Assembly (NCBI GenBank): GCA_034417895.1
Contig: DAOULT010000061.1
Location: 22,379-86,378, forward strand
Origin: Anaerolineae bacterium
Lineage (GTDB): Bacteria; Chloroflexota; Anaerolineae; CAZYHC01
Direction of reading: 5' to 3'
DNA length: 64,000 bases
The position numbers were made by a program, and so were the translations under genes. This document shows positions 1,817-26,627 of the stretch, piece by piece. The notes beneath the pieces were generated by a model. That model made no database searches. It saw only the letters and a list, made by a program, of their open reading frames with translations, and was not told where the DNA came from. The first letter of the stretch is position 1, and each line of letters opens with the position of its first letter.

Positions 1817-1966
1817 AGCCCAACCATGTAGCCGGAATGCGATGGAGAACCCGACTTTCTGAGGATATCATACCACAGGAGCCTGCCCCTCGCAAACCGG
1901 CGCAGGCTCTTTGTTATTTTGGCCCTTGCCGGTTTGGTGTTTCGTAGATTGTCTGGAGGGGAACTT

Positions 1967-4768
1967 ATGTCAAATAGAGAGCAGGAAATCGAGCACCTGG
2001 AGAAACTGCGGGCCAGGCATCAGGCGAACATCCGCAAGCTGGAAGAGATGCTGGCCGGGTATGGCATGGATCGTCCCTTGCCGCTGCTCAACAACCTGGA
2101 GTTCGAGCAGGAGCAGGTGCGGCAGGTAGAGGAGCAACTGGCGGCTCTCCGTGGAGAGAGGCCGGAGGAGGCTGCCGAAGAGCAGACCACTCCTGCCCCA
2201 ACAGGCGGGCGGCAGGTCACTGCTTCCGGCGAGAGGGCTGTGGCCGTAGGCGGCGACGTTAAAGGAAACGTGATAATTACACAAATGACCGCCGAAGCTT
2301 CCAGAGACTTCTGGCAGCGGTTTGCCGCTCGTCGTTTGTCAAAAGATGAGCTGCACCGGGCTACCAGCAGCTACCTGAAGCACCTGGTAGACCGCTACCG
2401 CTACCTGGACTTCAAAGGGATGGGCGTCTCTGACCGGGTGCCGCTGCGCCTGCCTCTTTTGGAGATGTACGTCCCGCTCAAGGCGCGCATTGAATTGCCC
2501 CAGGGGGAGACCTGGGCGCGCCAGTTGCAACTGGCGGGGCGCAAAGTCAGCGCCGAAGAAGCGGAAATGATGGGCCGGCGCCTGAGCGAGCCGCGCCCGG
2601 CGCTGGAGTTGCTCAGGGAAAACGACGGTCTCATCATCCTGGGCGACCCTGGCGCGGGCAAGACCACTTTCCTCAAGTACCTGGCCCTGCGCCTGGCGAT
2701 TGGGGAGGGAGAGGCTTTGGGCCTGGGAAAGCGGCTGCCCGTGCTGCTGCCCCTTTCGGCCTACGCCAACGTCCTGGCGGAGCGAGATGTGCCCCTGAAT
2801 CGCTTCATCGACGAGTATTACCAGGATCGGGGGGTCGATCTTCCCCTCGGCCCGATGCTGGACGAGGCTCTGGCGCAGGGGGGCGCGCTGCTCCTGCTGG
2901 ATGGACTGGACGAGGTCAGGGAGTTGAGCCAGCGGCACCTGGTGGTAGAGCGGGTGGTGGACTTCTTCACCTTCCAGCGGCAAAAAGGCAACAAGTGCAT
3001 TCTCACCAGCCGCATAGTAGGCTACCGGGAGGTGCGCCCCATAGCGGAGGGGCTAGCGGAATGCACCCTGGTGGATTTCGAGGAAGAGGAGATAGAGCAG
3101 TTTGTGGGGAAATGGACGGGCGCGCTGGAGCGGGCAGCGCGGGGCGAGACGCAGGTGGCCGAGTACGAAGCCGAACGGGAGCGGGAAGAGCTGCTGACCG
3201 CTATGCGTCGCAACCCTGGCGTCAGGCAACTGGCCTCCAATCCCCTGCTGCTCACCATCCTGGCCCTGATGAAGCGGCAGGGGGTCACGCTCCCTGAGAG
3301 GCGCGTGGAGTTGTACGAGCAATACGTGAGGACGCTGCTCAAAAACTGGAACCTGGCGCGTGGATTGGACCGTCCTCCCAGCCGCGATCTGGACGTGGTG
3401 GAGACCGTGCGGGTGCTGGCTCCGCTTGCTCTGTGGATGCACGAGACCAGTCCAGGGGTGGGGCTGGTGAAGCGGGAGGAGATGAGGCGCAGGCTGGAGC
3501 AGATTTACGCCGGGCGAGAGATGCCAGACCCGGAGGGAGCGGCCAGGCAATTGCTGGAAGACGTGCACGATTACGCCGGCCTGCTGCTGGAGCGGGGCCC
3601 TGGAGAGTACGGGTTCATCCACCTGACCTTCCAGGAGTACCTGGCAGCGGTGGCGATTGCCCAGCAGGGCCAGTTGGGAATTGAACCGGTGGTGGAAGCG
3701 TTGACGGCGCGCCTGGGGGACGACAACTGGCGCGAGGTGGCCCTGCTGACCATCGGATACGTGGGGATAGTGGAGCAGCGCGACAAAGCGGCTGGCGCAA
3801 CTCTGGCGAAGTTGATCGAGGCTGCGCCTGGAGAGCCTGGCCCGGCGGCGGTGCTGGCCGGGGAGGCGGTGGCGGATGCCTGGCCCGGCGGCGTGACTCC
3901 GGCTTGCAAAGAGAGAGTGGTGAGGGCGCTGGTAGAGACGTTAGGGGACGAAAAGGTGCAGGCTCCTCTGCGGGCCGAAAGTGGCCGTGTCCTGGCCCGC
4001 CTGGGCGACCCGCGTCCTGGAGTATGCACCCTGCCGCCGGAGTGGGTGGAGATACCTGGCGGAGAATTCGTTATGGGCGAGGGCAGGGAGCAACATAAAG
4101 TGAATCTGCCAGCTTTCTACATCAGCCGCTACCCGATAACCAACGCTCAGTATAAGCTCTTTGTCGAGGCCGGGGGCTATCGGGAGCGGAAATACTGGAC
4201 GGAGGCCGGATGGAAGTGGAAAAAGGACAGAGCAGAGCCGGAGCGATACGGCCCACCGTTCGACCTGCCCAACCATCCAGTGGTGGTTATCACCTGGTAC
4301 GAGGCGGTGGCCTTCTGCCGCTGGTTGAGCGAGGAGATAGGGCAGGAGGTACGCCTGCCGAGCGAAGCCGAATGGGAGAAGGCAGCGCGGGGTACAGACG
4401 GGCGGGAGTGGCCCTGGGGAAACGAGTTCGATGCGGCGCTGTGCAACGTGGGGGATACGAGGATTGGCACGACGAGCGCGGTGGGATGTTTTCCGGGCGG
4501 GGCGAGTCCGTATGGGGTGCTGGATATGGCCGGAAACGTCTGGGAATGGACGCGCAGTCTTTATAGTGAGTATCCTTATAGGGCTGACGATGGCCGTGAA
4601 GATGCGGAGGCTGGTGGCCGCCGGGTGTTGCGTGGCGGGTCGTGGTTCGATATTGAGTGGTTCGTCCGCTGTGCGTCCCGCGACTGGAGCGATCCGCTCT
4701 ACTACAACTTCAACTACGGTTTTCGGGTGGTGGCGTTGTCCCCGCTTTTTCCTACCTCTGGCCTCTGA
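1967..4768 (+). CDS. STAND NTPase of the NACHT family with an N-terminal coiled-coil, HEAT/PBS-lyase-like repeats and a C-terminal formylglycine-generating-enzyme (SUMF1/FGE-sulfatase) fold domain; NLR-like
   Basis: ORF 1919..4768. The likely start is ATG 1967, preceded by the ribosome-binding site GGAGGGG. It has a Walker A GDPGAGKTT, a Walker B LLLLDGLDEV and the NACHT ILTSR motif. The C-terminus carries FGE motifs: YPITNAQYKLFVEAGGY, LPSEAEWEKAARG, WPWGN and VLRGGSW. Confidence 0.85.
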   Translation: MSNREQEIEHLEKLRARHQANIRKLEEMLAGYGMDRPLPLLNNLEFEQEQVRQVEEQLAALRGERPEEAAEEQTTPAPTGGRQVTASGERAVAVGGDVKGNVIITQMTAEASRDFWQRFAARRLSKDELHRATSSYLKHLVDRYRYLDFKGMGVSDRVPLRLPLLEMYVPLKARIELPQGETWARQLQLAGRKVSAEEAEMMGRRLSEPRPALELLRENDGLIILGDPGAGKTTFLKYLALRLAIGEGEALGLGKRLPVLLPLSAYANVLAERDVPLNRFIDEYYQDRGVDLPLGPMLDEALAQGGALLLLDGLDEVRELSQRHLVVERVVDFFTFQRQKGNKCILTSRIVGYREVRPIAEGLAECTLVDFEEEEIEQFVGKWTGALERAARGETQVAEYEAEREREELLTAMRRNPGVRQLASNPLLLTILALMKRQGVTLPERRVELYEQYVRTLLKNWNLARGLDRPPSRDLDVVETVRVLAPLALWMHETSPGVGLVKREEMRRRLEQIYAGREMPDPEGAARQLLEDVHDYAGLLLERGPGEYGFIHLTFQEYLAAVAIAQQGQLGIEPVVEALTARLGDDNWREVALLTIGYVGIVEQRDKAAGATLAKLIEAAPGEPGPAAVLAGEAVADAWPGGVTPACKERVVRALVETLGDEKVQAPLRAESGRVLARLGDPRPGVCTLPPEWVEIPGGEFVMGEGREQHKVNLPAFYISRYPITNAQYKLFVEAGGYRERKYWTEAGWKWKKDRAEPERYGPPFDLPNHPVVVITWYEAVAFCRWLSEEIGQEVRLPSEAEWEKAARGTDGREWPWGNEFDAALCNVGDTRIGTTSAVGCFPGGASPYGVLDMAGNVWEWTRSLYSEYPYRADDGREDAEAGGRRVLRGGSWFDIEWFVRCASRDWSDPLYYNFNYGFRVVALSPLFPTSGL

Positions 4769-11384: not shown

Positions 11385-11501
11385 TATTTTTCCAGCCTCC
11401 CACCTGAACTGAATTTCTCATTATTAGTATATCACAAGTGGTCAGGTTTATCAAATAGCAGGTTTTCATGGGGGACAGCTAAAAGCGCCAGGCCCCTGGT
11501 A

Positions 11502-11534
11502 CAAAAAAGGGCGAGGCTCTTGCGAACCTCGCCC
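11502..11534 (-). terminator. Intrinsic terminator after the M4 protease gene; a member of the conserved 3' element family
   Basis: The minus strand reads GCTGCTCCAAACATCCAACGGGCGAGG-ttcgcaaga-GCCTCGCCC TTTTTTGT. Confidence 0.55.
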
Positions 11535-11567
11535 GTTGGATGTTTGGAGCAGAGTTGTGTCCAGCTC

Positions 11568-14500
11568 TCACTTTCGGATAAGGGGCAGATTAACAGAGGG
11601 CTGCCGCACCGTAGTGGTGACCGGGCTGCCCATAGTAGGAGTCACTCCTACGACGTTTGTTATCACCGCCCCGTAGTCGTCGTTAGTGATGAGCGTCCCA
11701 GGGGCTGCATTTTTGTCCACCGTGATCGCGAAGGTCAGGGTGATGCTCTCGGTCGGGCTGATTTCCAGGCCCGACCAGGCCACTGTGTTTGTGGCACTGA
11801 TAAACGTACCACCCTGCCCGATGCTGGCGCAGCAGGTGCTGTTCGCTGGCACGGTATCGGTCACCTGGACGTTGTATTCAGGGATGGTAGGGATGGTGGG
11901 GACGGTTTGTTGCTCAGAAACCTGGCCCGGCCCCGCCCAGCCGTCTGCCAGTCCGCCCGTTGTAGCTCCGCTCGTGGCGGTGAGGACGATGGTGTAGTTG
12001 AGCACCCCGCCCGGAGCCACCGGGTCAGGAGAGTCGCTCTTGCTGATGTCCAGGGATAGGGGGGGCATGACCATAGTGGTCACCGCCGGCCCCCAGACTG
12101 GAGTGGGCACCTGCTCGCAGCATACGCCGCAGATAGTGTTGACGATGGCCTGGCCGCCGGCTAAACTGGAGATGGTCACTGTAAACACGCGATTGATGGA
12201 TGCTCCGCTGGGCAGGCTGGCTACGTTCCAGGTCACGATTCCGTCTGACTCTGTGCCTCCATCGCTGGCCGAGTCGAAGCTGGTGTTAGCGGGTACGGCG
12301 TCGGTGATGACCAGGTTCGAGGCCGGACTCGGGCCGGAGTTGGTGATGGTCAGGGTGTAGGTCAGCAGACTGCCGGCCAGAATCGGGCCCGGTTCCCCGG
12401 CCTTGTAGATGCACAGGCATGGCGGGGGAATGACCGTAGTGGTCACTGCCGTGCCCCAGGTTACAGTGGGCACCTGGTCGCAGCGCACGCCGTAGGTGGT
12501 GTTGGTGATGACCTGGCCGGCGGCTAAACTGGAGATGGTCACCGCAAATGTGCGAGTGATAGATGCCCCACCAGCCAGGCTGGACACCGTCCAGCTTACC
12601 ACATTGCCTGCTGCCAGCGTGCCTCCATCGCTGGCTGAGACGAAGCCTGTGTCAGCGGGCAAAGTGTCGGTGATGACCAGACTGGAGGCCGCGCCCGCGC
12701 CGGAGTTGGCGATGGTCAGGGTGTAGGTCAGCAGGCCACCGGCCTGGACCGGGTCCGGGTTATCGACCTTGGCGATGCTCAAGGATGGCGGGATCTCGCA
12801 AGTGCAGATGCGGAAATCGTCAATGAACCAGCCGTAAGCATCAGCCGAGCTGTCGGTGCCGATGCGGAAGCGGAAGCGCACGTTCTCCCCGGCCAGCATG
12901 CTCAGGTTAAGACGGCTGGAGATGTAGCCGTTGCTTTCCTGGCCAAAGGCCTGTCGCCCACCCAGCGGGTTGCCATAGCCAGTGTAGATGGTTCCCCTGT
13001 AGCCGTTGTGAGTGATCAACGACCCGGCGTCTTGCCACGAGGTGCCGCCATCGGTGCTGTACTCGATCACGCCGCCATCATACATGGTTGTTGCATAATC
13101 TTCGAAGGCGTAGGCGTGGTTGAAGTGCAGGTAGGGCGTGCTTCCGGCTGGCAGGGCCACGTCTGAGGTCATGGCTATGTAGTAGTCGGCGACACTGGGT
13201 TGGTTGTAGCCCCAGAGGTTGTAGACGCCGCTGGTGGCGTAGGTGGCATCGAAGCCGTAGGGATTGGCTGTCTGGGGATAGTACCACTCATCGACTCCGA
13301 CCAGCGCCGCATGAGCCCAGTTGCCGCTGGCTGTGTTCTCCATATCATCAAAGAACAGATTGTTGGGCGACTGTCCGATGGGGCAGATGGAAGACTCGGT
13401 CGCCTGGCATGATGACGGCTGTAGGTTCATCTCCGTGGCGTCCACCGCATCCTTTACCTCCTGGCAATCGGCGGCGGTGATGCCGCTGGTGCCGATCAGG
13501 TTGGTGCACGCCTGTTGCAGGCCGTTGTACAGATCGTTGTAGTCGGCGGCCGAGGTGAACATGTTGGCCTGCACTTCGTAGAAGATCTTGGCTGTTTTGT
13601 CAATGCCGATACCGGCGACGGTGTAGCCGTTGAAGATGTCGCCGTCCACCATCAGGTAGGCGGCTTTGCTGCCGACGCCCATGTTGGTATGCACGCCGCC
13701 GTTGTCCCCTTCGCCACAGTAGTAATAGGTGCTGCCCATTCTATCCGGGTCGCCATGGGCCGGTGGGTTGCTCATGTCGCGGATGGCGCCAATGGGCAGG
13801 TCCTCACCCATCTGCCAGCGGTCGGCCGGCATGTCACTGCCTGCCCCGTTGGTCAGGTCAACGAACTCGCCCCATATATCGGAGAAAGCTTCGTTGACAG
13901 CGCCAGACTGCATGTAGTAGAACAGATGCGAGGCATACTCGGTGACGCCGTGGGTCATCTCGTGGGCCACCACGTCGTCGGCCGCAGCGTAGCCCTCACC
14001 GTAGACCATTTGCTGGCCGTTCCAGAAGGCATTGGCGAAGGGGCAACTGCCTGCGTCCGGGCAGTAGCGCACAGTTTGAGTGAGGGTCATACCGGCGTTG
14101 TCGAGGCTATCCCGGTCATGCGTGTTGTAGTAGAAATCGTACGTGTCGCCGCCGTAATCGTAGGCGTCGTCCGCATCCGGTACACCGGTCGCTGGCCCTC
14201 CCTCGGTACGGACCGGGCCGGTACCAGGCAGACCTGCGGTCCAGTCGTTGTTATTGTCGTAGATCACGCGGTTTCTGGCCACGTCGATCTGGTTGAAGTG
14301 CAGAGCGACCGCCCCGGTGTGGGCATCTATCAGGACCAGTTCGCGGACGGGTTGTAGCTCCACCGGAGTCACTTCCATCCGCCAGACCAGGGCGCTCAGG
14401 TTGAAGCTCGGTCCGAGCAGGATCGGGCTGTAGATCCACAGTTCCGGCTGGCTCACCGTGAGGTCGCCGGCGTTGAGGTCATAGTATTTGGTCACCAGAC

Positions 14501-15041
14501 CACGCGCCAGTTCACGAGCGGTACTTGCCTCCAGCCGGGGGGTGGTGTTCACTTTCAGACCGGGCAGAATCTCCCCGCCGGCGGAGATGACGTTCTTTTC
14601 GGCATCCATCTGGACGATCAGTTCGCCGCCCACCACCGGGATACCCTGATAAACCTGCTGGAAACGGACAAAGGAACGGCCCCGGTCGGCCGATGTGACG
14701 CGCATTACCGTTAGCTCCTGAGCCTGGTCGGTCAGGCCGAAAAGCGGGCCGTAAGTTTCCAGAAACCGCCGGGCGGCCTGCTCTGGAGGGTCTCCCCCTT
14801 GAGGGATGGGGTGGGCCAGGTCGGTGCCGATGAACCGGACCCGGCCGGTTTGGGCGTGATAGGCAATGCTTGCCCGGCCGCCTGTTGCCCGCTGCAACTG
14901 GTCAATCAGGCTTGCGTCTGCGGGAGTTGGCGTTGGTGCCTGAGCAGGGGGGGCGGCTTGTGCGGTGACGAGAAAACCGGGAGAAAGGATCAACAAACTG
15001 AAGCAAACGACAATAGATAGAAAGCGCATTATCAATGACAT
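11568..15041 (-). CDS. Secreted M4 (thermolysin-family) zinc metalloprotease with a propeptide and C-terminal DUF11 repeat domains
   Basis: The ribosome-binding site AAGGAGGAGG precedes the ATG at 15041. It has a signal peptide, the HEXXH motif VVAHEMTHGV and the downstream GAVNEAFSD motif. There are at least three DUF11-type repeats (DNPDPVQAGGLLTYTLTI...). The C-terminus ends in PLIRK. Confidence 0.85.
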   Translation of the reverse strand: MSLIMRFLSIVVCFSLLILSPGFLVTAQAAPPAQAPTPTPADASLIDQLQRATGGRASIAYHAQTGRVRFIGTDLAHPIPQGGDPPEQAARRFLETYGPLFGLTDQAQELTVMRVTSADRGRSFVRFQQVYQGIPVVGGELIVQMDAEKNVISAGGEILPGLKVNTTPRLEASTARELARGLVTKYYDLNAGDLTVSQPELWIYSPILLGPSFNLSALVWRMEVTPVELQPVRELVLIDAHTGAVALHFNQIDVARNRVIYDNNNDWTAGLPGTGPVRTEGGPATGVPDADDAYDYGGDTYDFYYNTHDRDSLDNAGMTLTQTVRYCPDAGSCPFANAFWNGQQMVYGEGYAAADDVVAHEMTHGVTEYASHLFYYMQSGAVNEAFSDIWGEFVDLTNGAGSDMPADRWQMGEDLPIGAIRDMSNPPAHGDPDRMGSTYYYCGEGDNGGVHTNMGVGSKAAYLMVDGDIFNGYTVAGIGIDKTAKIFYEVQANMFTSAADYNDLYNGLQQACTNLIGTSGITAADCQEVKDAVDATEMNLQPSSCQATESSICPIGQSPNNLFFDDMENTASGNWAHAALVGVDEWYYPQTANPYGFDATYATSGVYNLWGYNQPSVADYYIAMTSDVALPAGSTPYLHFNHAYAFEDYATTMYDGGVIEYSTDGGTSWQDAGSLITHNGYRGTIYTGYGNPLGGRQAFGQESNGYISSRLNLSMLAGENVRFRFRIGTDSSADAYGWFIDDFRICTCEIPPSLSIAKVDNPDPVQAGGLLTYTLTIANSGAGAASSLVITDTLPADTGFVSASDGGTLAAGNVVSWTVSSLAGGASITRTFAVTISSLAAGQVITNTTYGVRCDQVPTVTWGTAVTTTVIPPPCLCIYKAGEPGPILAGSLLTYTLTITNSGPSPASNLVITDAVPANTSFDSASDGGTESDGIVTWNVASLPSGASINRVFTVTISSLAGGQAIVNTICGVCCEQVPTPVWGPAVTTMVMPPLSLDISKSDSPDPVAPGGVLNYTIVLTATSGATTGGLADGWAGPGQVSEQQTVPTIPTIPEYNVQVTDTVPANSTCCASIGQGGTFISATNTVAWSGLEISPTESITLTFAITVDKNAAPGTLITNDDYGAVITNVVGVTPTMGSPVTTTVRQPSVNLPLIRK

Positions 15042-15639
15042 GATGTTCCTCCTCCTTTTAATCTAAGGTAGATGATTTTCAAATTTAACTACGACCTGTA
15101 TTCTTATTATAAATCACCTCCTTATCCTGCATGGCAATGCCGTTAACTTGAGGGCCAAGGCGATGAAAACAACAGCCTGACCGCATCCGAAAATCCAAAT
15201 AGATAGCCGTGGAGACAGATTGCCTCTCCACATTCTCGTTGAATCTGGCGCAGCAAGCGAACAGGCGAGACGATATTGTCACCTGGTCTTTAGGCCAATT
15301 CTTAAATTAATGAGATCATATTATCGTCGATGTTCTTTGGGAGATTAGAAGATATTTTGTGGAGTAATTGTAAGACAGAGGAGGTATAATGTGCATTGAG
15401 GTTATGATGTGGCAGAACACAGAGTAGAACGGACAACAAAGCTCTATGCTCGATATAGCTCAAGTGATGGGTACTAGAACAACAGGTCTTCAGAGCCTTT
15501 TAGTACCGCGAAGTTACCAGCGTCGAAAAGAGAGTTTAGCAAATTCCTTTCGTTAGCTTGTTACTAAAATTATAAACCGTCCCCCCTTCAAAGTCAAGAG
15601 CTACAACCTTAAAATTTTGCCTAATTGCCCATTATTAAT

Positions 15640-15713
15640 ATTATACCACAAAAAGGTTATTTTTGGGTAAAGATCAGGTTAAAATTTGGTAAAAAATTTC
15701 AGAACGTATGTTC
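15640..15713 (-). promoter_or_regulatory. Promoter cassette copy B (minus strand) with the GAACgtatGTTC palindrome, located about 600 nt upstream of the protease start
   Basis: The reverse complement reads GTTCTGAAATTTTTTACCaaatTTTAACCtgatcTTTACCcaaaaaTAACCtttttGTGGTATAAT. It is about 85% identical to the copy at 1214-1295. Confidence 0.4.
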
Positions 15714-15728
15714 TAAACATGCTCAATG

Positions 15729-15768
15729 CGCAAACAAACAAAAAGCCCCCGGCCTTAACCGGAGGCTT
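15729..15768 (-). terminator. Intrinsic terminator of the alpha-2-macroglobulin gene
   Basis: The minus strand reads AAGCCTCCGG-ttaagg-CCGGGGGCTT followed by TTTTGTTTGTTTG. Confidence 0.5.
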
Positions 15769-15798
15769 CGTTTGCGCAACAGAACTATTCAAATGGTG

Positions 15799-18700
15799 CT
15801 ATTCGGAGATGGTGAACAGCCGCCCGTCGGAGCGGCCAAACACCTCCGGGAAATACATCTCGTTGGCGAAGGTGGGGATCACCCGGTATTCGCCCGGCAG
15901 GGTGGCGCGGAAGGTGTAGACGTATTCGTAGCTGCCGGCCGGCAGGTAATCGGCGAAGAGCACCATCTTCTCGTCGCGCATCTCGTAGCGGCTGTACCAG
16001 CGCCACCACCACCAGTAGAACTCCCGCCACCGCTCGTTCTGGGATTGGCGGTAGAGGTGAGGATCCCGCTCCAGCAGGCTGGTGGTCGCCAGGCTGGGGT
16101 CGATGGCCTCCGCCCCGGCCGGCAGCGGATCCTCGACGACCACGTAATACAGGTCGTGAGGAGCCACGATGGTCAGCTTGACCTGGATCACGTCGTCGAC
16201 TTTGGCACTGTCCACCTCTTCGCACTCCTTCCCCACGGCGCAGTCGGCCCTGGTGTACTGGCGGTAGACGATGATGCCCCGGTTGATGGGTTCGATGTCC
16301 TCCACGGGCAGGTAGATTTTCAGGTGAGCGGTGTAGTACAGGCGGCCCGGCCCTTCGTAGCGGCCAATGTCCAGTCGGTTGCCCTGGTCACGCAGCAGCT
16401 CGGCCACCGCCACCCGCAGCTTTATGCTCTGGTCCACGTTTTCGGCGTTCACCGCGCCAGAGGCCAGCTCTTCATCGTTGAGGGCGGCGAAGTACTCGTA
16501 CTGGCCCTGAAGCTCGCCGGTTACCACCATCCAGTCGGTCAGGGCGATCAGCGCCCAGGCCGTCTCCTGCGTGGTCTCCCAGATGCCATCCCGCCGGGCG
16601 ACCATCAGCCAGCGCACCACGTTGGGGATCAGGTCGTTGTCCGGATCCAGTTTAGCCAGGGCGTCCAGGATGATGGCCGTAGAACGGGTATCGGTGTTCA
16701 TGGCCCACCAGTCGTAGTGGGCTTCTTCCCAGTGGGCGCCGGTGGCGCTCAGGATGGCGGCGTTGTTGAGGTCGCTCAGGAGGGTGGGGAGGCGGTCATC
16801 GTTGGGGTTAATCAGGTCCAGGGTCATAGCCAGCAAAGCTCGACCGTAGTGAGATAGCTTCTCGCGATTCTCTAACAGGTCGCCGGTGTACTCACTGGCC
16901 CAGGCCGCATTTCCAGCCTCGGCCATAACGTAGAGGATGAACGCCTGACGGTTGGCCTGGCGATAGCCTTTCAGTTCGCGGCTGGTGACCAGTTGACCGA
17001 ACAGGTATTCCAGCCCCCTGGTGATGACCTCTTCCCTCACCTCGAAGCCGGCCTCGCGGGCTTTGTCCATCCCCAGGATTACGTAAGCGGTCAGGTGCGG
17101 GTTGCTGCTGGTGCTTCTGTACCACCACCCCCAGCCGCCATCGTCGTGCTGCATGAGATAGAGCTTGTTCAAGGCCGTCTCCACCAGGTCGGGCAGTATC
17201 TCCTCCAGGTCAGGCCGTTCGATGCCCAACTCACGCAGGGCGCGGTAGGTGAGCACGTTGGGCAGGAACCTGGACACCACCTGCTCGGAACATTCGTAGG
17301 GGAAGTGTTCCAGGTATTTCAGCCCGTCCTGCATCCCCGCGGCCAGAGAGGGATCGAGTTGGATCGTCAACTGACCCTGGCGTTCGTCGTAGCGGGGCGG
17401 CAGGGCTATCACTTCGGTGCGGGTGCCCTGCTCCACCAATTGTCCGCCGGTGCCGACCACCTCCGGGGCAGAGTAGCGATAGACCAGGAGCGTGCCCTCC
17501 GGGCCGGTGGTCAGCCGCGGACGGGCGGCGTCGCTGTATTCCCCGCACACGGCGCTGAAGATCAACTCAGCTTCCTCCACGTCGAGGACGGTCACGTCCC
17601 AGGTCACTTTAGCCTCCCCACCAGCCGGGATGTTGACGGTCTGTTCGGCGTCGCTGTGCAGCTTCAGGCCGCTGGAGCTGAGGGCCACCACGACGTCAAG
17701 GGCCTGGTCGGCGTTGTTGTTGACCAGGGCTGCCAGTTCGGCCCGGTCGTCTACCACGAAGAAGCGAGGGGTGACGGGGCGAACCAGCAGCGGCTTGGTG
17801 ACCAGAATCTCAGAAGTGGCCTCCCCGACCTGGGTGTTGGCGGTGACGGCCACGCCCCGGCATACCCAGGTGGTCAGGTTATCGGGCAGCGGGATCTCGA
17901 CGCTGGCCTGGCCGCTCCGGTCGGTGACTACGGTGGCGTTCCAGTAGGCGGTGTCGGCGAACTCTTCGCGCAGCTCCACTCCCGGCGGAGGCGCGGCCTG
18001 CTTCTCCTCAGCGAATTCCTCGTCTGCCGCCATCCCAGGCGTCATGGTAGCCGCTGGCGCAGGAGGAACCTCCCCCAGCATCATCCCTTCTTCTGCCCCT
18101 CTGGCGTGTTTGTCATACTCTTCGCCCCGCTCTTTGAGTTGTTCCAGCACCAGGCGGTTTATGGAGATAGCCAGGCCGCTGGAAGTGCTTACCCCCAGGC
18201 CCCGCTGGCCGTAGAAAGTGTTGACGATGGCCTCTGGCGGGCGGGGCGAAAGAGTCAGGATAGCTTTATCGACCAGGTCGAGGGAGAAGGCCGCCGCCAC
18301 CGGCTCTCCGGTATGATCGGTGGCCCGCACCTGGTAAGTCACGGTGTCGCCTGGCCCGGCCTTCTCCACGCTGGGGGTCAGGGTGATGGTCAGCTTTTGC
18401 GGCTCAGGATCGACGCTAAAGGCGGCGTAACCGACTTTGTAGTTAGCCACCGGGTTGTCTTCGTCCTGGCCCTTGACGATGACGGCTGAGACGTAGACGT
18501 TGGGCACGTGATCGAGGGTGATGGGCAGCTCGTAGACCTGGCTGTTGCTTTCCAGTTGGAGCACTTCACGATGGATGATGTTGCCCCGCTCGACAGTGAT
18601 CAGAGCATAGTGCTCGCCCTGGAAGGGAGAGGGGATCAGGATTTCAGCCGTCTCTCCCACGGTATAGCTGCCCTTGTCGGCGATGAGGTTGATGCGGTCG

Positions 18701-21700
18701 TTGTTCTCGCGTCGCCAGGAAACGTACTCGCGCCCGCTGACCCACACAAAGATGCTGCTCTGCACCAGGCGCTCGGTGGTGTCGCGCCCGTTGACCACGA
18801 TGCGGTACGATCCGCCTTTGGGCGGGATGAAGGTGGTAACCGCCTCGGCGTTTTGGTCGGTGGTGATGGTCTCCTCAAAGACCAGTTCGTTCACCGTCTC
18901 CCATTTCCAGCGGCCTCCGCCGGCTTCGTCCTCGACGAAGGTGTTGACCCACTCCCGACGGTAAACCTCCACTTTTAGCTTCTGGTTGGGGAACCGCTCT
19001 CCGGCCCAATCGACGGTCACGACGTCCACGGACATCTCTTTTTCGGCCCGCCCGATGTATTGGCGCGGAGCCAGGCCGACGTAAAATTCGCCCTGGTGGA
19101 CGACGATATCCTTCCGACCGGAGATGACCTGGTTGTCTGCGCCGGTAGCGGTGGCTTCCACGATCAGGCGACGGCTGCCCACCGGCCCTTCGCGGTCTGG
19201 AGCGACGGTCAACTGAGCGATGTTGCCCGGCAGCTCGACGATCAGTTGGCCGTTTTTATCGGTGCGCCCCGCCCCGCTGAGCACTACCTGGGGCGGTTCG
19301 GGATACCACCACCAGCAATCAAAGCAAATCCAGGGATCGTTGGTGTCGGTGAATCTGTAGCGACCGAATTGCGGCGGTTTGAAGCGATAGGTTTCGGCCA
19401 TCACGTTCCACTGGACGGGCACGTCTACCACCGGGCCGCCGAAGAAATATTTCACCTCGACGGTGGCCTTAGTAGGCTCTCCGGCCACGACCTCTTCCTG
19501 GTCGGGGGTGACGACCACCTCGAACTCCGGGGGACGATAGGCCGCCACCTGGAAACTGCCGGGGAAGTTAGAGCCTGCGAAGTTAGCCCGAATCTGGTAG
19601 TGGCCCAGAGACGCGCCCCCGGCCAGAGCCAGCTCCCCGTGGAAAGCGCCGAACTCGTCCAACTCCAGTTCCTCGTTATATACCTCCTCCCCGGCGGCGT
19701 CACGAATGGTAACGTACACTGGCTCCAGGTCGGGCAGGCCATAGTGAACGTCGTCTTCGGCGCGGATGATGCCCCGGAAGTACACCGTCTGTCCGGCGCG
19801 ATAGATGGGCCGCTCGGTGTAGACGTGGGCGCGGAAGTCACGCTTATACTCCTGGTTAAAGCCGAAGTCCCAGGACGTGACGCCGGGGTTCCACCCTTCG
19901 CCGCCCATAGTGAAGGGGGCTTCGCTGAGGACGAATATAGTGTTAGAGCGCCCGGAGCCTGTATCGAAGTGAGCCAGCCCATCGGCGTCGGTGGTGGCTG
20001 CGCCCAGCTTGTCTCCGTCCCGGTCGAGGGCCTTGAGTTCCAGGCCCGCCACCGGCCGGCCGGTAGGCAGGTCGGTGGCCCAGGCCAGCATCTCGTCGTC
20101 GGCGATCTTGAGGGTCAGGTTGGTCTCGGACACCACCAGCAGATGACGATGCCACCAGCGTTCGTAGGTCACATCCGGCGAATCGATATCCAAGAGATAG
20201 ATGCCGGACGGCAGCCTTCCCCCGCCTTCGACCAGATCGACGGGCAGGTATTGCTCTTCGTTCAGCGGCGCTTCGACCCACACCGACCAGGCCCGCATCA
20301 GGTCTCTACCAGGCGGGATGAAGTCATACCCCTCTCTCTGGGCCTGGAGGAAGTCATCCACGTCGAGGCCATAGAGCATCAAATCCAGGCGGCTGGTGTT
20401 GAGGTAGGCCACGAACAGGCGAGCCGGGTCGGCGGCGTTGTAGGTGCCCACCAAGCCGGGAACGTGCAGGCGGACCATCGGCTCCAGGGCCGCGGTGGTG
20501 AAGCGCACGGTCATCTCCTGGCCGGTGGTGTTGCCGTAGGGGTCGGCGATGTGGGGGCCGATGTGCACCTGGTAGTCGGTCGAGGGTTGGGGATTGAAGT
20601 AGAGCACAAAACTGTTATCCCAGGTGTCGAAGTAGGTGTAGACCTGGGTAGGCGAGAGCGGCGGGGTCATGGTCAGGTTGCCCATCACCGTGTCGGGGTC
20701 GATGGGGGCGTTAAAATGGATCCTGAAATCGGTGTAGGGATAGGCGTCCTTCGTCCCATCAGGGGGGGAAGTGCCGATGATGCGCGGCAGGGGCGCGGTG
20801 GTGAATCGCCACTCATAGTCAGCGCGCATCCCCTCCCCGCCGGACAGGCTGGTCACCCCGCGGGCGATGCGCACCTCATACGTCTGGTCAAAATCCAGCA
20901 TTTCCTCCGGCTGGAAAACTAAAGTGTTGGTGTAATACTCGAAGTCGCCGATCACCCGGCGGCCATCTGCGGTTTTGAGGCTGAAAGCTTCCTTGAAGGA
21001 TGAGAGGTCTATCGGCTGATTGAACTGCACCTCGATTTTGGTCACAGGGGCCACCAGGGTTTGATCGGTTGAGGGCGTAGTCCAGGTCACTTCGGGCGGC
21101 TGGGTGCTGAAGGTCCAGTCGTAATCTTCTTCCAGGAGGCCGCCGGTAGTGTCGCTGAGGCCGGCCACGACGCGGGCCGTGTAAGTGACGCCTCCGGCCA
21201 GGGGCTTATCCGGGGTGAAGATGTACATGGAGGTGTTCAGCCACTCGCCGCGGCCCGTGACTTGCGGCTCGAAGGTCAGCGGTTGGGGCAGGTCGGCCTG
21301 CTCGTCCAGGGTGGTCAGAGGCACGACGGGGCGGTTGAACATCACCGTCAGGCTGCCATCGGTCTCCACGTCGTAGCTCTCGGGGGCGGGGATGACCTGC
21401 GATACCTCCAGGTAGCCGACGGTGGTGAAGCGGAACGCATAAGTCTCTGCCAGAGAAACGCCGTCAGCGGCTTTGGCTTCCATTCCCAGGCTGACCTTAT
21501 AGGTCGTGGAGCGGGCCAGCGGCTCGGCGGGATAGAAGCGGACTGTCCTCTCGTCGGGCCACTCGAAGCGGCCTGCAACTTCAGGAGCGATGCGGAAAGC
21601 GTTTTCCACCGCAGCCTGATCCATGGCCCGGTCGAAGACCAATTCGACGGGGCCCTCCAGAGGCAACTCCTGGCCGCGCTCAGGCGTGCGCTGGATGACG

Positions 21701-21813
21701 ATGGGGGCCGGAACAGGGCCAGGGGACGCAGAGGTCTTCCTGGGCCGGCCAATGGCCCCCAAAAGCAGGCTGGTCACCACGACCAGCGTTAAAGCGATGT
21801 ACAGGTGTTTCAT
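15799..21813 (-). CDS. Bacterial alpha-2-macroglobulin family protein (about 2000 aa) with N-terminal Big_5/SbsA-type Ig domains and a CxEQ thioester motif
   Basis: The start is ATG 21813 with AGGAGGGAAG upstream and a signal peptide MKHLYIALTLVVVTSLLLGA. The thioester region is LEHFPYECSEQVVSRF. Its size and repeat architecture are typical of bacterial A2M. Confidence 0.85.
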   Translation of the reverse strand: MKHLYIALTLVVVTSLLLGAIGRPRKTSASPGPVPAPIVIQRTPERGQELPLEGPVELVFDRAMDQAAVENAFRIAPEVAGRFEWPDERTVRFYPAEPLARSTTYKVSLGMEAKAADGVSLAETYAFRFTTVGYLEVSQVIPAPESYDVETDGSLTVMFNRPVVPLTTLDEQADLPQPLTFEPQVTGRGEWLNTSMYIFTPDKPLAGGVTYTARVVAGLSDTTGGLLEEDYDWTFSTQPPEVTWTTPSTDQTLVAPVTKIEVQFNQPIDLSSFKEAFSLKTADGRRVIGDFEYYTNTLVFQPEEMLDFDQTYEVRIARGVTSLSGGEGMRADYEWRFTTAPLPRIIGTSPPDGTKDAYPYTDFRIHFNAPIDPDTVMGNLTMTPPLSPTQVYTYFDTWDNSFVLYFNPQPSTDYQVHIGPHIADPYGNTTGQEMTVRFTTAALEPMVRLHVPGLVGTYNAADPARLFVAYLNTSRLDLMLYGLDVDDFLQAQREGYDFIPPGRDLMRAWSVWVEAPLNEEQYLPVDLVEGGGRLPSGIYLLDIDSPDVTYERWWHRHLLVVSETNLTLKIADDEMLAWATDLPTGRPVAGLELKALDRDGDKLGAATTDADGLAHFDTGSGRSNTIFVLSEAPFTMGGEGWNPGVTSWDFGFNQEYKRDFRAHVYTERPIYRAGQTVYFRGIIRAEDDVHYGLPDLEPVYVTIRDAAGEEVYNEELELDEFGAFHGELALAGGASLGHYQIRANFAGSNFPGSFQVAAYRPPEFEVVVTPDQEEVVAGEPTKATVEVKYFFGGPVVDVPVQWNVMAETYRFKPPQFGRYRFTDTNDPWICFDCWWWYPEPPQVVLSGAGRTDKNGQLIVELPGNIAQLTVAPDREGPVGSRRLIVEATATGADNQVISGRKDIVVHQGEFYVGLAPRQYIGRAEKEMSVDVVTVDWAGERFPNQKLKVEVYRREWVNTFVEDEAGGGRWKWETVNELVFEETITTDQNAEAVTTFIPPKGGSYRIVVNGRDTTERLVQSSIFVWVSGREYVSWRRENNDRINLIADKGSYTVGETAEILIPSPFQGEHYALITVERGNIIHREVLQLESNSQVYELPITLDHVPNVYVSAVIVKGQDEDNPVANYKVGYAAFSVDPEPQKLTITLTPSVEKAGPGDTVTYQVRATDHTGEPVAAAFSLDLVDKAILTLSPRPPEAIVNTFYGQRGLGVSTSSGLAISINRLVLEQLKERGEEYDKHARGAEEGMMLGEVPPAPAATMTPGMAADEEFAEEKQAAPPPGVELREEFADTAYWNATVVTDRSGQASVEIPLPDNLTTWVCRGVAVTANTQVGEATSEILVTKPLLVRPVTPRFFVVDDRAELAALVNNNADQALDVVVALSSSGLKLHSDAEQTVNIPAGGEAKVTWDVTVLDVEEAELIFSAVCGEYSDAARPRLTTGPEGTLLVYRYSAPEVVGTGGQLVEQGTRTEVIALPPRYDERQGQLTIQLDPSLAAGMQDGLKYLEHFPYECSEQVVSRFLPNVLTYRALRELGIERPDLEEILPDLVETALNKLYLMQHDDGGWGWWYRSTSSNPHLTAYVILGMDKAREAGFEVREEVITRGLEYLFGQLVTSRELKGYRQANRQAFILYVMAEAGNAAWASEYTGDLLENREKLSHYGRALLAMTLDLINPNDDRLPTLLSDLNNAAILSATGAHWEEAHYDWWAMNTDTRSTAIILDALAKLDPDNDLIPNVVRWLMVARRDGIWETTQETAWALIALTDWMVVTGELQGQYEYFAALNDEELASGAVNAENVDQSIKLRVAVAELLRDQGNRLDIGRYEGPGRLYYTAHLKIYLPVEDIEPINRGIIVYRQYTRADCAVGKECEEVDSAKVDDVIQVKLTIVAPHDLYYVVVEDPLPAGAEAIDPSLATTSLLERDPHLYRQSQNERWREFYWWWWRWYSRYEMRDEKMVLFADYLPAGSYEYVYTFRATLPGEYRVIPTFANEMYFPEVFGRSDGRLFTISE

Positions 21814-21856: not shown

Positions 21857-22182
21857 GGCCATGGCGCTAAATCTACCTTAGAGACGTTGGAGCTGGCGAG
21901 AAAGTTCCCCCACGTTGCTGCTGATGGGTGCATTGTACCACAGCCTCTTCAGGGGGTCAAAGAGGACAGCAGGGGCCTGGCACGACGAACGTTCGCTGTT
22001 GAAGTGCCAGGCGGCTGAAAATTGGAAAGTCGGAAAAACGCGAAGAATATGGTATAATGTCAGGCGTGGAGCGGCCATTGACCGGCTCATTCGCAGGGGG
22101 CTGACGGCGAGGTGACACCGCTAGACGAAGGTTTCAATTTCGCATTGTGTTTATCTCCGAAGAGGAGAAAGGAGAAAATAAC

Positions 22183-23892
22183 ATGTACAAACTCATCACC
22201 AAGGGACTGCGTCTACTTTTCATCGTGGCCCTGGCTGCCGGGCTGGCTCTGGGCGCGGCGCCCGTGCCGGTGGCTCACGCCGCTACGATCAATGTCAACA
22301 GCACCACCGATAACACGACCGCTGGCGACGGCACCTGTACCCTGCGCGAAGCTATCAATAACGCCAACGCCGACGCCGATACTACCGGAGGCGACTGTGC
22401 TGCCGGCAGCGGCGCTGACACCATCAGCCTTCTTGCCGGCACCTACACCCTGACGATAGTTTCCACAGACGAAGACGCCAACGCCGACGGCGACCTGGAC
22501 ATCACAGGAGGAAGCGACCTGACCATCCAGGGCGCAGGCGCAGCCACCACCATCATCGACGGCAACGGCAGCGTGACGAATGGCCGTGTGCTCCACATCA
22601 CCATAAGCGACATCACCGTCAGCATAGACGGGGTGACCATTCAGAACGGCAACATGGGAGACTGGGGAGGGGGCATCTACAACCACGGCAGCCATTTGAA
22701 CGTCGCCAACAGCATCATCTCCGGCAACCAGGCAAGCCACCACGGCGGCGGCATCTTCAACTTCGGCGGCACGGCGACCATCTCTAACAGCACCATCTCC
22801 GGCAACCAGACAATACACTACGGCGGCGGCATCGACAACAGCGGCGCGGTGACCATCACCAACAGCACCATCTCCGGCAACCAGGCAAACTGGGGCGGCG
22901 GTGGCATCCGCAACAGCGGCGGCACGTTGAACGTCGCCAACAGCACCCTCTCCGGCAACCAGGCAGACTCTGACGGCGGCGGCATCTACAACGGGAGCGG
23001 CACGACCACCCTGGACAACGTGACGATTAGCGGCAACACCGCCAGCGGCGACGGCGGGGGGGTCACCGGGGACCCCCAATATGGCGGTATAGTCAATCTC
23101 AGAAACACCATCATCGCCGGGAACACCGACACGGGCGGAGAAGCGCCCGATGGTAGCGGGACGCTTACCTCCCTGGACTACAACCTGGTAGGGAACAGCA
23201 CGGGCTGCACCATCACCCTGCAAGCGAACGACCAGATAGGCACCGGCGGCAGTCCCATTGACCCCATGCTGGGACCCCTGGCCGACAACGGCGGCGCGAC
23301 GCACACACACGCCCTGCTCATCGGCAGCCCGGCCATTGATAAGGGCCATTGCACCGACAGCGGCGGCAACCCTGTCACCACCGACCAGCGCGGCGTGGCC
23401 CGGCCACAAGGCGCTACCTGCGACGTCGGGGCATACGAGAAAGCCATTGCGCCTGGCGTGCCAGATTTGTCCATCGGCAAGAGCGCCATCCCTGATCCGG
23501 TGATTGCTGGCGGCCTGTTGACCTACACCATCAACGTGGCCGAAAGGGGCGGCCTGGTAGACGCTACCGGGGTGCAGATGACCGACACCATACCCGCCGA
23601 CACCGTTTTCGCCTGGGCCGACAACGGCGGCTCTCTGGTGGGCGGCGACGTGCTATGGTCGGGCCTGACCATCAGCGCCAGCCAGAGCATCAGCATCGCC
23701 TTTGTAGTGACGGCCAGCTATAGACCCCATGCCACCACGCTCCGCTGGTTCCTCCACAACGATCACTACCAGGCGGTCATCGCTACCACCGCAGGGATAA
23801 GCGTGGTGACAGGCAGCGCCGTGACCACCACGGTACGGGCCATTGGAGCCTATCTGCCCACCATCCAGAGGAACAACGTCATCACGCCGTAA
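22183..23892 (+). CDS. Secreted CSLREA-domain protein with right-handed beta-helix repeats (NSTISGNQA rungs) and a C-terminal DUF11 domain
   Basis: The ribosome-binding site AGGAGAAAGGAG precedes the ATG at 22183. It has a signal peptide, a GDGTCTLREAINNANAD motif, about eight NxTISGNQ(A/T) repeats and a DUF11 motif (PDPVIAGGLLTYTINV). Confidence 0.75.
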   Translation: MYKLITKGLRLLFIVALAAGLALGAAPVPVAHAATINVNSTTDNTTAGDGTCTLREAINNANADADTTGGDCAAGSGADTISLLAGTYTLTIVSTDEDANADGDLDITGGSDLTIQGAGAATTIIDGNGSVTNGRVLHITISDITVSIDGVTIQNGNMGDWGGGIYNHGSHLNVANSIISGNQASHHGGGIFNFGGTATISNSTISGNQTIHYGGGIDNSGAVTITNSTISGNQANWGGGGIRNSGGTLNVANSTLSGNQADSDGGGIYNGSGTTTLDNVTISGNTASGDGGGVTGDPQYGGIVNLRNTIIAGNTDTGGEAPDGSGTLTSLDYNLVGNSTGCTITLQANDQIGTGGSPIDPMLGPLADNGGATHTHALLIGSPAIDKGHCTDSGGNPVTTDQRGVARPQGATCDVGAYEKAIAPGVPDLSIGKSAIPDPVIAGGLLTYTINVAERGGLVDATGVQMTDTIPADTVFAWADNGGSLVGGDVLWSGLTISASQSISIAFVVTASYRPHATTLRWFLHNDHYQAVIATTAGISVVTGSAVTTTVRAIGAYLPTIQRNNVITP

Positions 23893-23924
23893 GGGGTCGG
23901 GCGGGGCTGCTCCACACGTCCAAC

Positions 23925-23954
23925 GGGCGAGGTTGTAGAAGCCTCGCCCGTTTT
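23925..23954 (+). terminator. Intrinsic terminator after the CSLREA gene; a conserved 3' element family member
   Basis: GCTGCTCCACACGTCCAACGGGCGAGG-ttgtagaag-CCTCGCCC GTTTTGT. Confidence 0.55.
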
Positions 23955-25927: not shown

Positions 25928-26554
25928 ATGCGTAAAACAAAAGACAATGCTAAATTCCCCTCAGGTTTATCTATTCTAATCGTCGTGGGCCTGGCCCTGG
26001 TTATGCTGCTTGCGGCCAGACCTACCGTCTGGGCTACGGGAGAGCAACAGACTATACCTACTATACCTACTATACCGACCATACCCTCTCCACTGACCAT
26101 CACCAAGACCGACTGTCCTGATCCGGTGGAGCCAGGCGCTATTCTCAACTACACCATCGTGGTCGCTGCCGTGGCCCCTGTCGTACCGGACGGGCCAGCA
26201 GACGAGTGGGCGGGGGCAGGGCAGGTTAGCTCTCGGCAGACCCTCCCTTACGGCATAGTGGTGACCGACGTCGTGCCGGCTAACACCACTTTCTCCAGCG
26301 CCGATAGCGGCGGCACGTACATCAGCGCCACAAACATGGTGGTCTGGTCGGGCCTGTCAATCACCGCCGGCGAGAAGATCACTGTACAGCTCAATGTCCG
26401 GGTCGCCCAAGGTCTATCCGTGGGAACGGTTCTCGAGAACGCCTACTACGGGGCGATGGTAACAAACACCGCGGGAGTGAGTGCTACGGTGGGTGTCCCG
26501 GTCACCACTACGGTGGCGTGGAACCCTCTGAGGCTGCCTCTCATTCGGAAGTAA
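25928..26554 (+). CDS. Small secreted DUF11-domain protein, a paralog of the protease C-terminal domain
   Basis: The ribosome-binding site AAGGAGG is present. It has a signal peptide, a TIPTIPTIPTIP repeat and PDPVEPGAILNYTIVV. The C-terminal 100 aa align with the C-terminus of the 11568..15041 protein, and both end in LPLIRK. Confidence 0.7.
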   Translation: MRKTKDNAKFPSGLSILIVVGLALVMLLAARPTVWATGEQQTIPTIPTIPTIPSPLTITKTDCPDPVEPGAILNYTIVVAAVAPVVPDGPADEWAGAGQVSSRQTLPYGIVVTDVVPANTTFSSADSGGTYISATNMVVWSGLSITAGEKITVQLNVRVAQGLSVGTVLENAYYGAMVTNTAGVSATVGVPVTTTVAWNPLRLPLIRK

Positions 26555-26591
26555 GAGCCGAGTATAGCTGTAGCTGCTCCAAACATCTGGC

Positions 26592-26627
26592 GGGCGAGGT
26601 TTCAGGACCTCGCCCGTTTTTGTTGTT
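26592..26627 (+). terminator. Intrinsic terminator; a conserved 3' element family member
   Basis: GCTGCTCCAAACATCTGGCGGGCGAGG-tttcaggac-CTCGCCC GTTTTTGTTGTT. Confidence 0.6.

Follow-up and report, generated by a model that had tools for sequence, protein, structure and literature searches.

A thioester alpha-2-macroglobulin and a secreted M4 metalloprotease as likely independent neighbours in an Anaerolineae genome

The two genes and the region between them

The 64-kb stretch of DNA analysed here (the window; positions 22,379 to 86,378 of contig DAOULT010000061.1, assembly GCA_034417895.1, from an Anaerolineae bacterium) carries, side by side on the minus strand, a gene for a thioester-type alpha-2-macroglobulin (A2M; 15799..21813) and a gene for a secreted thermolysin-like metalloprotease of the M4 family (11568..15041). 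A preliminary description of this locus had proposed that the two might form a protease/protease-trap pair and had stressed that the A2M lacked pbpC, the gene for its supposed partner PBP1c. Our analysis suggests instead that they are two intact, independent genes which became neighbours recently, the A2M being a protease trap similar to ECAM of E. coli and not part of a module, a reading that we consider likely. According to this, the A2M is a thioester-bearing ("type I"-like) member of a large and conserved Chloroflexota family, stand-alone in every context examined, and its adjacency to the M4 gene carries no functional signal.

The A2M gene is listed as monocistronic and encodes 2004 amino acids (aa), its product being identical to the database protein P0001. 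The longest open reading frame (ORF) opens at 21933, a start that we rejected because its ATG falls within a -10 hexamer shared with the nearest relative, in which the reading frame before 21813 has not been kept; the start is instead the ATG at 21813 (MKHLY...), which both genomes share. The protein begins with a signal or anchor segment (MKHLYIALTLVVVTSLLLGAIG; 21748..21813) without a lipobox cysteine, which is followed by four tandem Big_5 Ig-like domains (aa 38-441; 20491..21702; four Pfam stretches, E 4.6e-55) and then, in this order, by the Pfam domains bMG3, MG2, bMG6, A2M_BRD, A2M, TED_complement and bMG10. The thioester motif CSEQ (aa 1508-1511, in FPYECSEQ; 17281..17292) lies inside TED_complement, the predicted bait region (aa ~1225-1282; 17968..18141), which is acidic, rich in Pro and Ala, poorly conserved and variable in length, follows A2M_BRD, and the C-terminal macroglobulin (MG) domain (bMG10/CTMG; 15844..16278), defined by Pfam and alignment, contains RDEK at aa 1946 and EMY at aa 1985. 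The ORF and the Pfam search therefore bear out the preliminary assignment of a thioester A2M of about 2000 aa with a CSEQ motif and N-terminal Big_5 domains.

The best solved relatives of this protein are ECAM (YfhM; 5a42) and Salmonella Sa-A2M (4u48), with E ~1e-36, and insect TEP1 and CD109 were also found among the PDB matches, while NCBIfam has no model matching it. Since the alignment with ECAM and Sa-A2M spans residues 573-1990 only, the Big_5 array is an N-terminal addition that is absent from ECAM. When 41 family members were aligned, the thioester block was the most conserved of all (0.92) and residues 1231-1260, after the bait-region domain, were the least conserved interior block (0.39 versus a mean of 0.73); together with the variable length of this segment across the family, such low conservation is the pattern expected of a bait. 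Additionally, RDEK aligned to RDDR of ECAM and EMY to its ESMY (the ExMY motif), with the Glu one position off. In ECAM and Sa-A2M these two motifs hold the thioester domain (TED) and, after cleavage, the bait (PMC4498604). The CxEQ motif was kept in 63 of 64 compared sequences, one from the window, one from each of 60 distinct related loci and three that are duplicates. The preliminary description had also considered that the A2M might lack an intact bait or thioester region; both are intact across the family alignment and, as judged from its sequence, the gene looks functional.

The neighbouring gene encodes a secreted prepro-M4 metalloprotease of 1157 aa, identified by its ORF, Pfam and a PDB match, whose N-terminus is a signal peptide (MSLIMRFLSIVVCFSLLILSPGFLVTAQA). 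Pfam assigned to it an FTP domain (109-157), Peptidase_M4 (287-368), Peptidase_M4_C (371-535) and three DUF11 domains, in addition to a weak InhA-like MAM match at aa 623-745. The catalytic domain (aa 287-535; 13437..14183, minus strand) matches prepro-thermolysin (5a3y, E 3.8e-54) with HEMTH at 360, NEAFSD at 383 and GGVH at 448 intact. All the defining elements of the M4 (thermolysin) family were found, that is, the HExxH motif, the downstream Glu ligand in NExxSD, the catalytic His and the FTP propeptide, as in thermolysin and bacillolysin (MEROPS M4); unlike these enzymes, the protein adds the MAM-like domain and three DUF11 domains and ends in LPLIRK. The elaborate thermolysin-like protease with DUF11 repeats of the preliminary description was in this way confirmed by Pfam and by the 5a3y match.

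DUF11 (PF01345) was renamed CLIPPER in 2025; its Ig-like fold is cross-linked internally by a Lys-Asp-Asn isopeptide bond, which makes it resistant to heat and proteases (PMC12617251). The three CLIPPER domains found here (aa 750-1157; 11571..12794, minus strand; Pfam, E 1.3e-33) contain, by motif inspection only, the candidate Lys/Asp/Asn triads K758/D792/N847, K880/D914/N968 and K1001/D1062/N1120, whose spacings of 34/55, 34/54 and 61/58 can be compared with 33/58 in 9IFR (K715/D748/N806; PMC12617251). The three domains resemble the CLIPPER domains of fibrillar adhesins in matching Pfam DUF11 and in this spacing, but here they are attached to an enzyme and not to an adhesin stalk. Because a phmmer search of the tail against PDB chains gave no match, the triads come from motif spacing only, and the domains are probably isopeptide-stabilised and protease-resistant. 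The M4 core (about 760 aa) is common among Anaerolineae, where its orthologues bear many alternative C-terminal tails, and the tail of three CLIPPER domains is specific to this lineage; besides the gene itself, the best match in the whole protein database is 69% identical. The enzyme is probably an independent secreted protease used for feeding on protein.

A short C-terminal tag was noticed in the proteases of this type, at least 28 of 120 Anaerolineae-type M4 proteases (P0122-P0239) ending in sequences such as VYLPLVLKNYP, IYLPLILRNAR or VFLPIILRNH. The tag stands at the extreme end whatever domain precedes it and is not followed by a transmembrane segment (for example, L070:12217-12301), and LPLIRK of the protease described here looks like a variant of it. 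A full-text literature search for the tag strings gave no match, and the tag may represent a so far undescribed signal for the sorting or processing of secreted Chloroflexota proteins at their C-terminus.

The two genes are separated by a spacer of 757 bp (15042..15798, minus strand) with 40.2% GC versus 63% and 61% in the genes themselves, which is absent from the nearest relative; the AT-rich region of about 750 bp with a promoter cassette that had been reported between the two co-oriented genes is thus indeed present. An intrinsic terminator (15742..15769, minus strand; 12-bp GC-rich stem and T-run, -27.6 kcal/mol, z -3.0) begins 30 nt past the A2M stop codon, and another one follows the M4 gene (11509..11534, minus strand; -24.7 kcal/mol, z -4.6). 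The A2M gene is preceded by a promoter-like site (TTGACC-17-TACAAT with a TG extension; 21932..21960, minus strand) that is kept in the closest relative, whose A2M is 88% identical. This promoter is unrelated to an 80-nt cassette (15635..15717, minus strand) that points toward the M4 gene about 590 nt before its ATG and contains an AGAAC-N4-GTTCT palindrome, T(T/A)ACC repeated four times with a phase of 11 nt, and TGnTATAAT as an extended -10. The palindrome resembles the GAAC-N4-GTTC LexA box of Gram-positive bacteria. A second promoter-like site (TTGACT-17-TATAAT, 11 of 12; 15569..15597, minus strand) also lies upstream of the M4 gene. All these elements point to A2M and M4 as two transcription units under putatively different control.

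The cassette (80-85 nt, non-coding) occurs three times in the window, at 1209-1288, at 1580-1660 (inverted) and at 15635-15717, with a mean identity of 81% and no copy expected by chance, and the other two copies face a NACHT/FGE-sulfatase gene (1919..4768) and a minus-strand gene to the left of 1209. Two metagenome-wide pattern scans of JGI metagenome contigs gave no match to it, and none was found in the fetched related loci apart from the window's own contig. An Rfam scan of the 10.5-27 kb interval (E<=1) returned only a chance snoRNA match inside the M4 coding region and no riboswitch or small RNA in the spacer; the 524-nt M4 leader gave no sign of structure on folding (z 0.06), and the small ORFs in the spacer look spurious and were discarded. 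Upstream of the A2M, about 45 nt of its leader (ACGTGGGGGAACTTTCTCG..AGCTCCAACGTCTCTAAGGTAGATTT; 21869-21925 versus L001:9780-9832) are nearly identical in the 88% relative with diverging flanks, and in this relative about 115 nt are inserted at a later point of the leader. The conserved stretch may be a regulatory element.

Gene neighbourhoods in related genomes

A scan of a genome collection returned 62 A2M loci, which we queried by tblastn with the catalytic half of the M4 protease and with E. coli PbpC (E<=1e-2). No M4 gene was found within 10 kb of the A2M in the 60 distinct loci. The Chloroflexota type accounts for twenty of them, whose flanks add up to 252 kb; in 14 of the 20, the sequence after the A2M runs on for 4 kb or more. 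In addition, six family members at 60-88% identity, whose contexts were annotated with Pfam, had unrelated neighbours, with no M4 and no penicillin-binding protein (PBP); three of these six, P0007, P0008 and P0009 (70-71% identity), had neither an M4 gene nor a PbpC homologue nearby. The same was observed from the protease side, since three M4 orthologue loci (catalytic halves 59-69% identical) had no A2M nearby. All-against-all clustering of the flanking ORFs did not reveal any partner conserved across the Chloroflexota group, and the sole recurrent flanking gene was an ACT-domain gene, found in 7 loci of one subclade.

Regarding pbpC, a Pfam search of the 42 largest ORFs of the window that do not overlap one another revealed no class A PBP (no transglycosylase or transpeptidase gene), nor did tblastn with E. 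coli PbpC give any match in the window, so that the reported lack of this partner holds for the whole window; a copy lying just outside is excluded because the A2M is 15.8 kb and 42 kb away from the window ends. The premise that A2M genes typically pair with pbpC turned out to be weak. None of the 60 distinct loci, all but one of them with CxEQ, has a PbpC homologue within 10 kb, and they come from many phyla, including Acidobacteriota, Planctomycetota, Bacteroidota, Chlorobiota and Desulfuromonadales, in a sample biased toward relatives of the window A2M. This includes the 40 loci more distant than the Chloroflexota-type ones, 39 of which have an intact thioester. The literature itself goes no further than placing thioester A2M genes beside pbpC "in a number of bacteria" or "frequently" (PMC5764988, PMC4498604). 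Within this part of the A2M family a missing pbpC is the norm, to which this locus is no exception.

The closest A2M relative, 88% identical, comes from an uncultured Anaerolineales metagenome-assembled genome (MAG; L001), which by blastn is collinear with the window along the A2M gene itself (88.7%), its promoter region (85%) and the DUF362 gene that lies upstream (91%). Past the A2M stop codon, the sequence of the relative matches positions 11547..11486 of the window, which is the terminator that follows the M4 gene, with 17 matching nt beyond the T-run, on its 3' side, that other copies of this terminator family do not share. Nothing in the relative corresponds to the 4.2-kb segment 15793..11548, made up of a new terminator, the AT-rich spacer and the M4 gene. 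The M4 gene, together with its AT-rich promoter region, separates the A2M stop codon from what is putatively the ancestral A2M terminator. On the other side of the A2M, 2.1 kb with a 581-aa CLIPPER-tailed beta-helix protein (22147..23892) stand against about 110 nt in the relative. Since the next-best M4 match is only 69% identical, the assembly of the relative appears to be without an M4 orthologue, bearing in mind that MAGs are incomplete. The outgroups at 70-71% identity are also devoid of M4, which makes an insertion in the lineage of the window the parsimonious reading. We infer this direction for the rearrangement, the alternative being a deletion in the relative.

Proposed role of the A2M and other readings

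The A2M belongs to a family of 1382 homologues (E<=1e-10), of which the best 120 show 58-100% identity and have the same Pfam architecture. Most of these are full-length proteins of about 2000 aa, with a few truncated at the N-terminus, and where a source is named it is Anaerolineae or Chloroflexota. The N-terminus of these proteins usually consists of a lipobox, a long Pro/Thr-rich linker and the Big_5 array. Of the 107 members that have a hydrophobic segment at the N-terminus, 91 show the lipobox pattern and several others a Cys, so that around 90% of the family keep the lipobox cysteine (L-x-[AG]-C, for example, LLLTAC or LLLGAC), and most members would be exported as lipoproteins. This suggests a lipid-anchored stalk, formed by lipobox, Pro/Thr linker and Big_5 domains, that could hold the trap off the membrane. 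The lipobox cysteine is lacking in P0001 (the A2M of the window), P0002 (the 88% relative) and P0008; the window protein has no Cys in its 45 N-terminal residues (LLLGAIGRPRK) and its linker is short, which implies a putative change of anchoring within this lineage.

If the A2M works as its homologues ECAM and Sa-A2M do, the exposed, hypervariable bait would be cut by a foreign protease, the TED would then be freed from the C-terminal MG domain, and the Cys1508-Gln1511 thioester would acylate a lysine of the protease, which would end up caged. Acting without a PBP1c partner, the A2M could in this way guard proteins close to the membrane in a cell probably devoid of an outer membrane, with the trap facing the wall zone directly and not a closed periplasm. 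Genome analysis of cultured Anaerolineae reports no lipopolysaccharide or outer-membrane genes (PMC4653795), which would agree with the monoderm-like envelope suggested in the preliminary description. In the absence of a lipobox Cys, the window protein may be released after cleavage by signal peptidase I or kept by an uncleaved signal anchor. Trapping activity and cellular location are both predictions.

The likeness to ECAM and Sa-A2M includes the MG body, the bait-region domain, the TED with CxEQ, the C-terminal MG domain, which has putative counterparts of the two lock motifs (RDD[RK]-like and (E)MY), and export, with lipid anchoring in most members of the family. On the other hand, the similarity is distant, the protein has about 350 extra N-terminal residues (the four Big_5 domains), its motif context is YEC[TSA]EQ versus YGC[LVT]EQ in ECAM and Sa-A2M, and it has neither a pbpC operon nor a lipobox Cys, in a host probably without an outer membrane. 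MagD/YfaS, a type II A2M encoded in the six-gene mag operon, shares the superfamily, the domain body and bait-based trapping (PMC5764988), but it lacks CxEQ and needs MagA, MagB and MagF, whereas the protein described here has CSEQ and no mag-type neighbours (DUF1175, DUF2138) in the window; only in distant relatives from the Acidobacteriota were DUF1175 and SpoIID-like genes observed beside the A2M. A2M homologues outside the classical Gram-negative bacteria, with a proposed anti-protease role, are also known among the A2M-like giant surface proteins of Patescibacteria such as Ca. Vampirococcus lugosii (PMC9793634), which belong to a different lineage with another lifestyle, that of epibiotic parasites, and are likened here by description only.

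Several points weigh against the reading of two independent genes with an ECAM-like trap. All the relatives are MAGs with limited flanks, so pbpC or M4 may lie elsewhere in those genomes; the direction of the rearrangement rests on outgroup parsimony and on a 62-nt match to a terminator that belongs to a repeated element family; the ExMY motif (EMY) is shifted by one residue; and a lineage-specific adjacency may still be functional, as a protease-secreting cell may need the A2M for self-protection whether the genes are linked or not. This last point connects with a broader interpretation, in which the Chloroflexota A2M clade (about 2000 aa, with lipobox, Pro/Thr linker, four Big_5 domains and no PBP1c or Mag partner) would be a distinct monoderm macroglobulin, a trap at the wall zone or cell surface, that in the lineage of the window would have turned into a released inhibitor by loss of its anchor and could buffer the cell's own proteases such as M4. 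We put this forward tentatively, as something rather unlikely.

A continued partnership of the A2M, following the ECAM model, with a PBP1c-like peptidoglycan synthase encoded elsewhere in the genome is quite improbable. The occurrence of thioester A2Ms next to pbpC in a number of bacteria, for which a joint role in defence and repair has been proposed (PMC5764988, PMC4498604), would favour it, and the part inspected is 64 kb of a 122-kb contig; against it, PbpC was missing within 10 kb of all 60 related loci, diderm phyla included, no neighbour is conserved across the Chloroflexota A2M family, and the coupling to PBP1c is itself a hypothesis from gene order. We are equally reluctant to see in the A2M a complement- or TEP-like protein for covalent tagging or adhesion, whose Big_5 stalk would present the thioester head to foreign surfaces or polymers. 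A long Ig-like stalk is unusual among bacterial A2Ms, family conservation is very high (about 60% identity over 2000 aa) and TEP1 and CD109 are among the PDB matches, all of which would agree with such a function, but the best of those matches are the bacterial protease traps ECAM and Sa-A2M, the hypervariable bait and the putative CTMG lock motifs are typical of protease-triggered activation, and Pfam detected no adhesion domain.

The dedicated pair, in which the A2M would shield the cell's own envelope from the neighbouring M4 protease, or capture or regulate it, and adjacency would mean coupling, is the least probable of all: the genes are co-oriented and adjacent, both products are exported as judged from their sequences, both families are common in Anaerolineae and Met, Leu, Val, Ala and Phe, residues that thermolysin-like (M4) enzymes favour, abound in the bait, but any A2M bait can be cleaved by most endopeptidases and bait composition is therefore not specific evidence, the adjacency is unique to this genome (0 of 23 other Chloroflexota contexts and 0 of 3 M4 contexts), the 4.2-kb segment is absent from the closest relative, and a strong terminator and unrelated promoters separate the two genes. 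Adjacency that is not conserved and is interrupted by a terminator is not what defines a protease/inhibitor pair, and the pairing proposed in the preliminary description could not be upheld.

The pairing claim matters little, as the adjacency arises from a lineage-specific rearrangement. What deserves attention is the family of the A2M, because the literature ties thioester A2Ms to Gram-negative bacteria and PBP1c, and here a large conserved family is found in a phylum thought to lack an outer membrane. With none of the 60 loci linked to pbpC, the picture of a "periplasmic defence and repair module" may be narrower than usually stated. The Chloroflexota subfamily is a known kind of protein, large but unstudied, with a distinctive N-terminal stalk and no partner genes, and it offers a tractable target for the role of a macroglobulin on a monoderm surface.

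Further observations at this and related loci

Some A2Ms of the sample have neighbours that recall the mag operon. In the Acidobacteriota-type loci L027, L031-L035, L040, L045, L047, L049, L050, L059 and L061, thioester-bearing A2Ms (CTEQ or CVEQ) adjoin DUF1175 and SpoIID-like genes, in a mag/yfaS-like arrangement. One such neighbour was considered as a PBP and rejected, as it is SpoIID-like, with a sub-threshold transpeptidase match, and stands with DUF1175 in a mag/yfaS-like context. Furthermore, L048 (Brocadiaceae) has SSDQ instead of CxEQ. The split between type I A2Ms (thioester and pbpC) and type II A2Ms (no thioester and mag operon) is not clean in these loci.

The flanks of the A2M orthologues (L001, L003, L071, L072 and L073) often hold variable defence or toxin-antitoxin genes, among them BREX BrxL/PglZ with nSTAND, type I restriction-modification with AbiE, PIN/HEPN, BrnT/HigB/PemK and BrxC/Csa1, and the window itself has the NACHT/FGE-sulfatase gene 11 kb from the A2M. 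Such neighbours may merely reflect how abundant these genes are in Anaerolineae.

Three genes of the window share homologous 3' ends within 15 kb, namely the M4 protease gene (11568-12080, minus strand), the gene for the 581-aa CSLREA/PMP beta-helix protein (23350-23892, plus strand) and the gene for a 208-aa protein (25928-26554, plus strand). Each of them ends in a CLIPPER domain (44-52% identical among them) carrying ...VTTTVx6LP[LT]I[RQ][KR], after which comes a terminator hairpin that is similar in all three (11509-11552, 23907-23934 and 26574-26601, respectively), and no other ORF of the window has this ending (3 found, 0.2 expected). The M4 and beta-helix genes of this set bracket the A2M and both are absent from the 88% relative.

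Lastly, the gene at 1919-4768 (plus strand), which has a cassette copy upstream, encodes a 949-aa NACHT/STAND NTPase fused to a C-terminal FGE-sulfatase (formylglycine-generating-enzyme-like) domain, and the 88% relative has a similar NACHT/FGE-sulfatase gene (L001:3101-5749) with an N-terminal Mrr-like nuclease domain.

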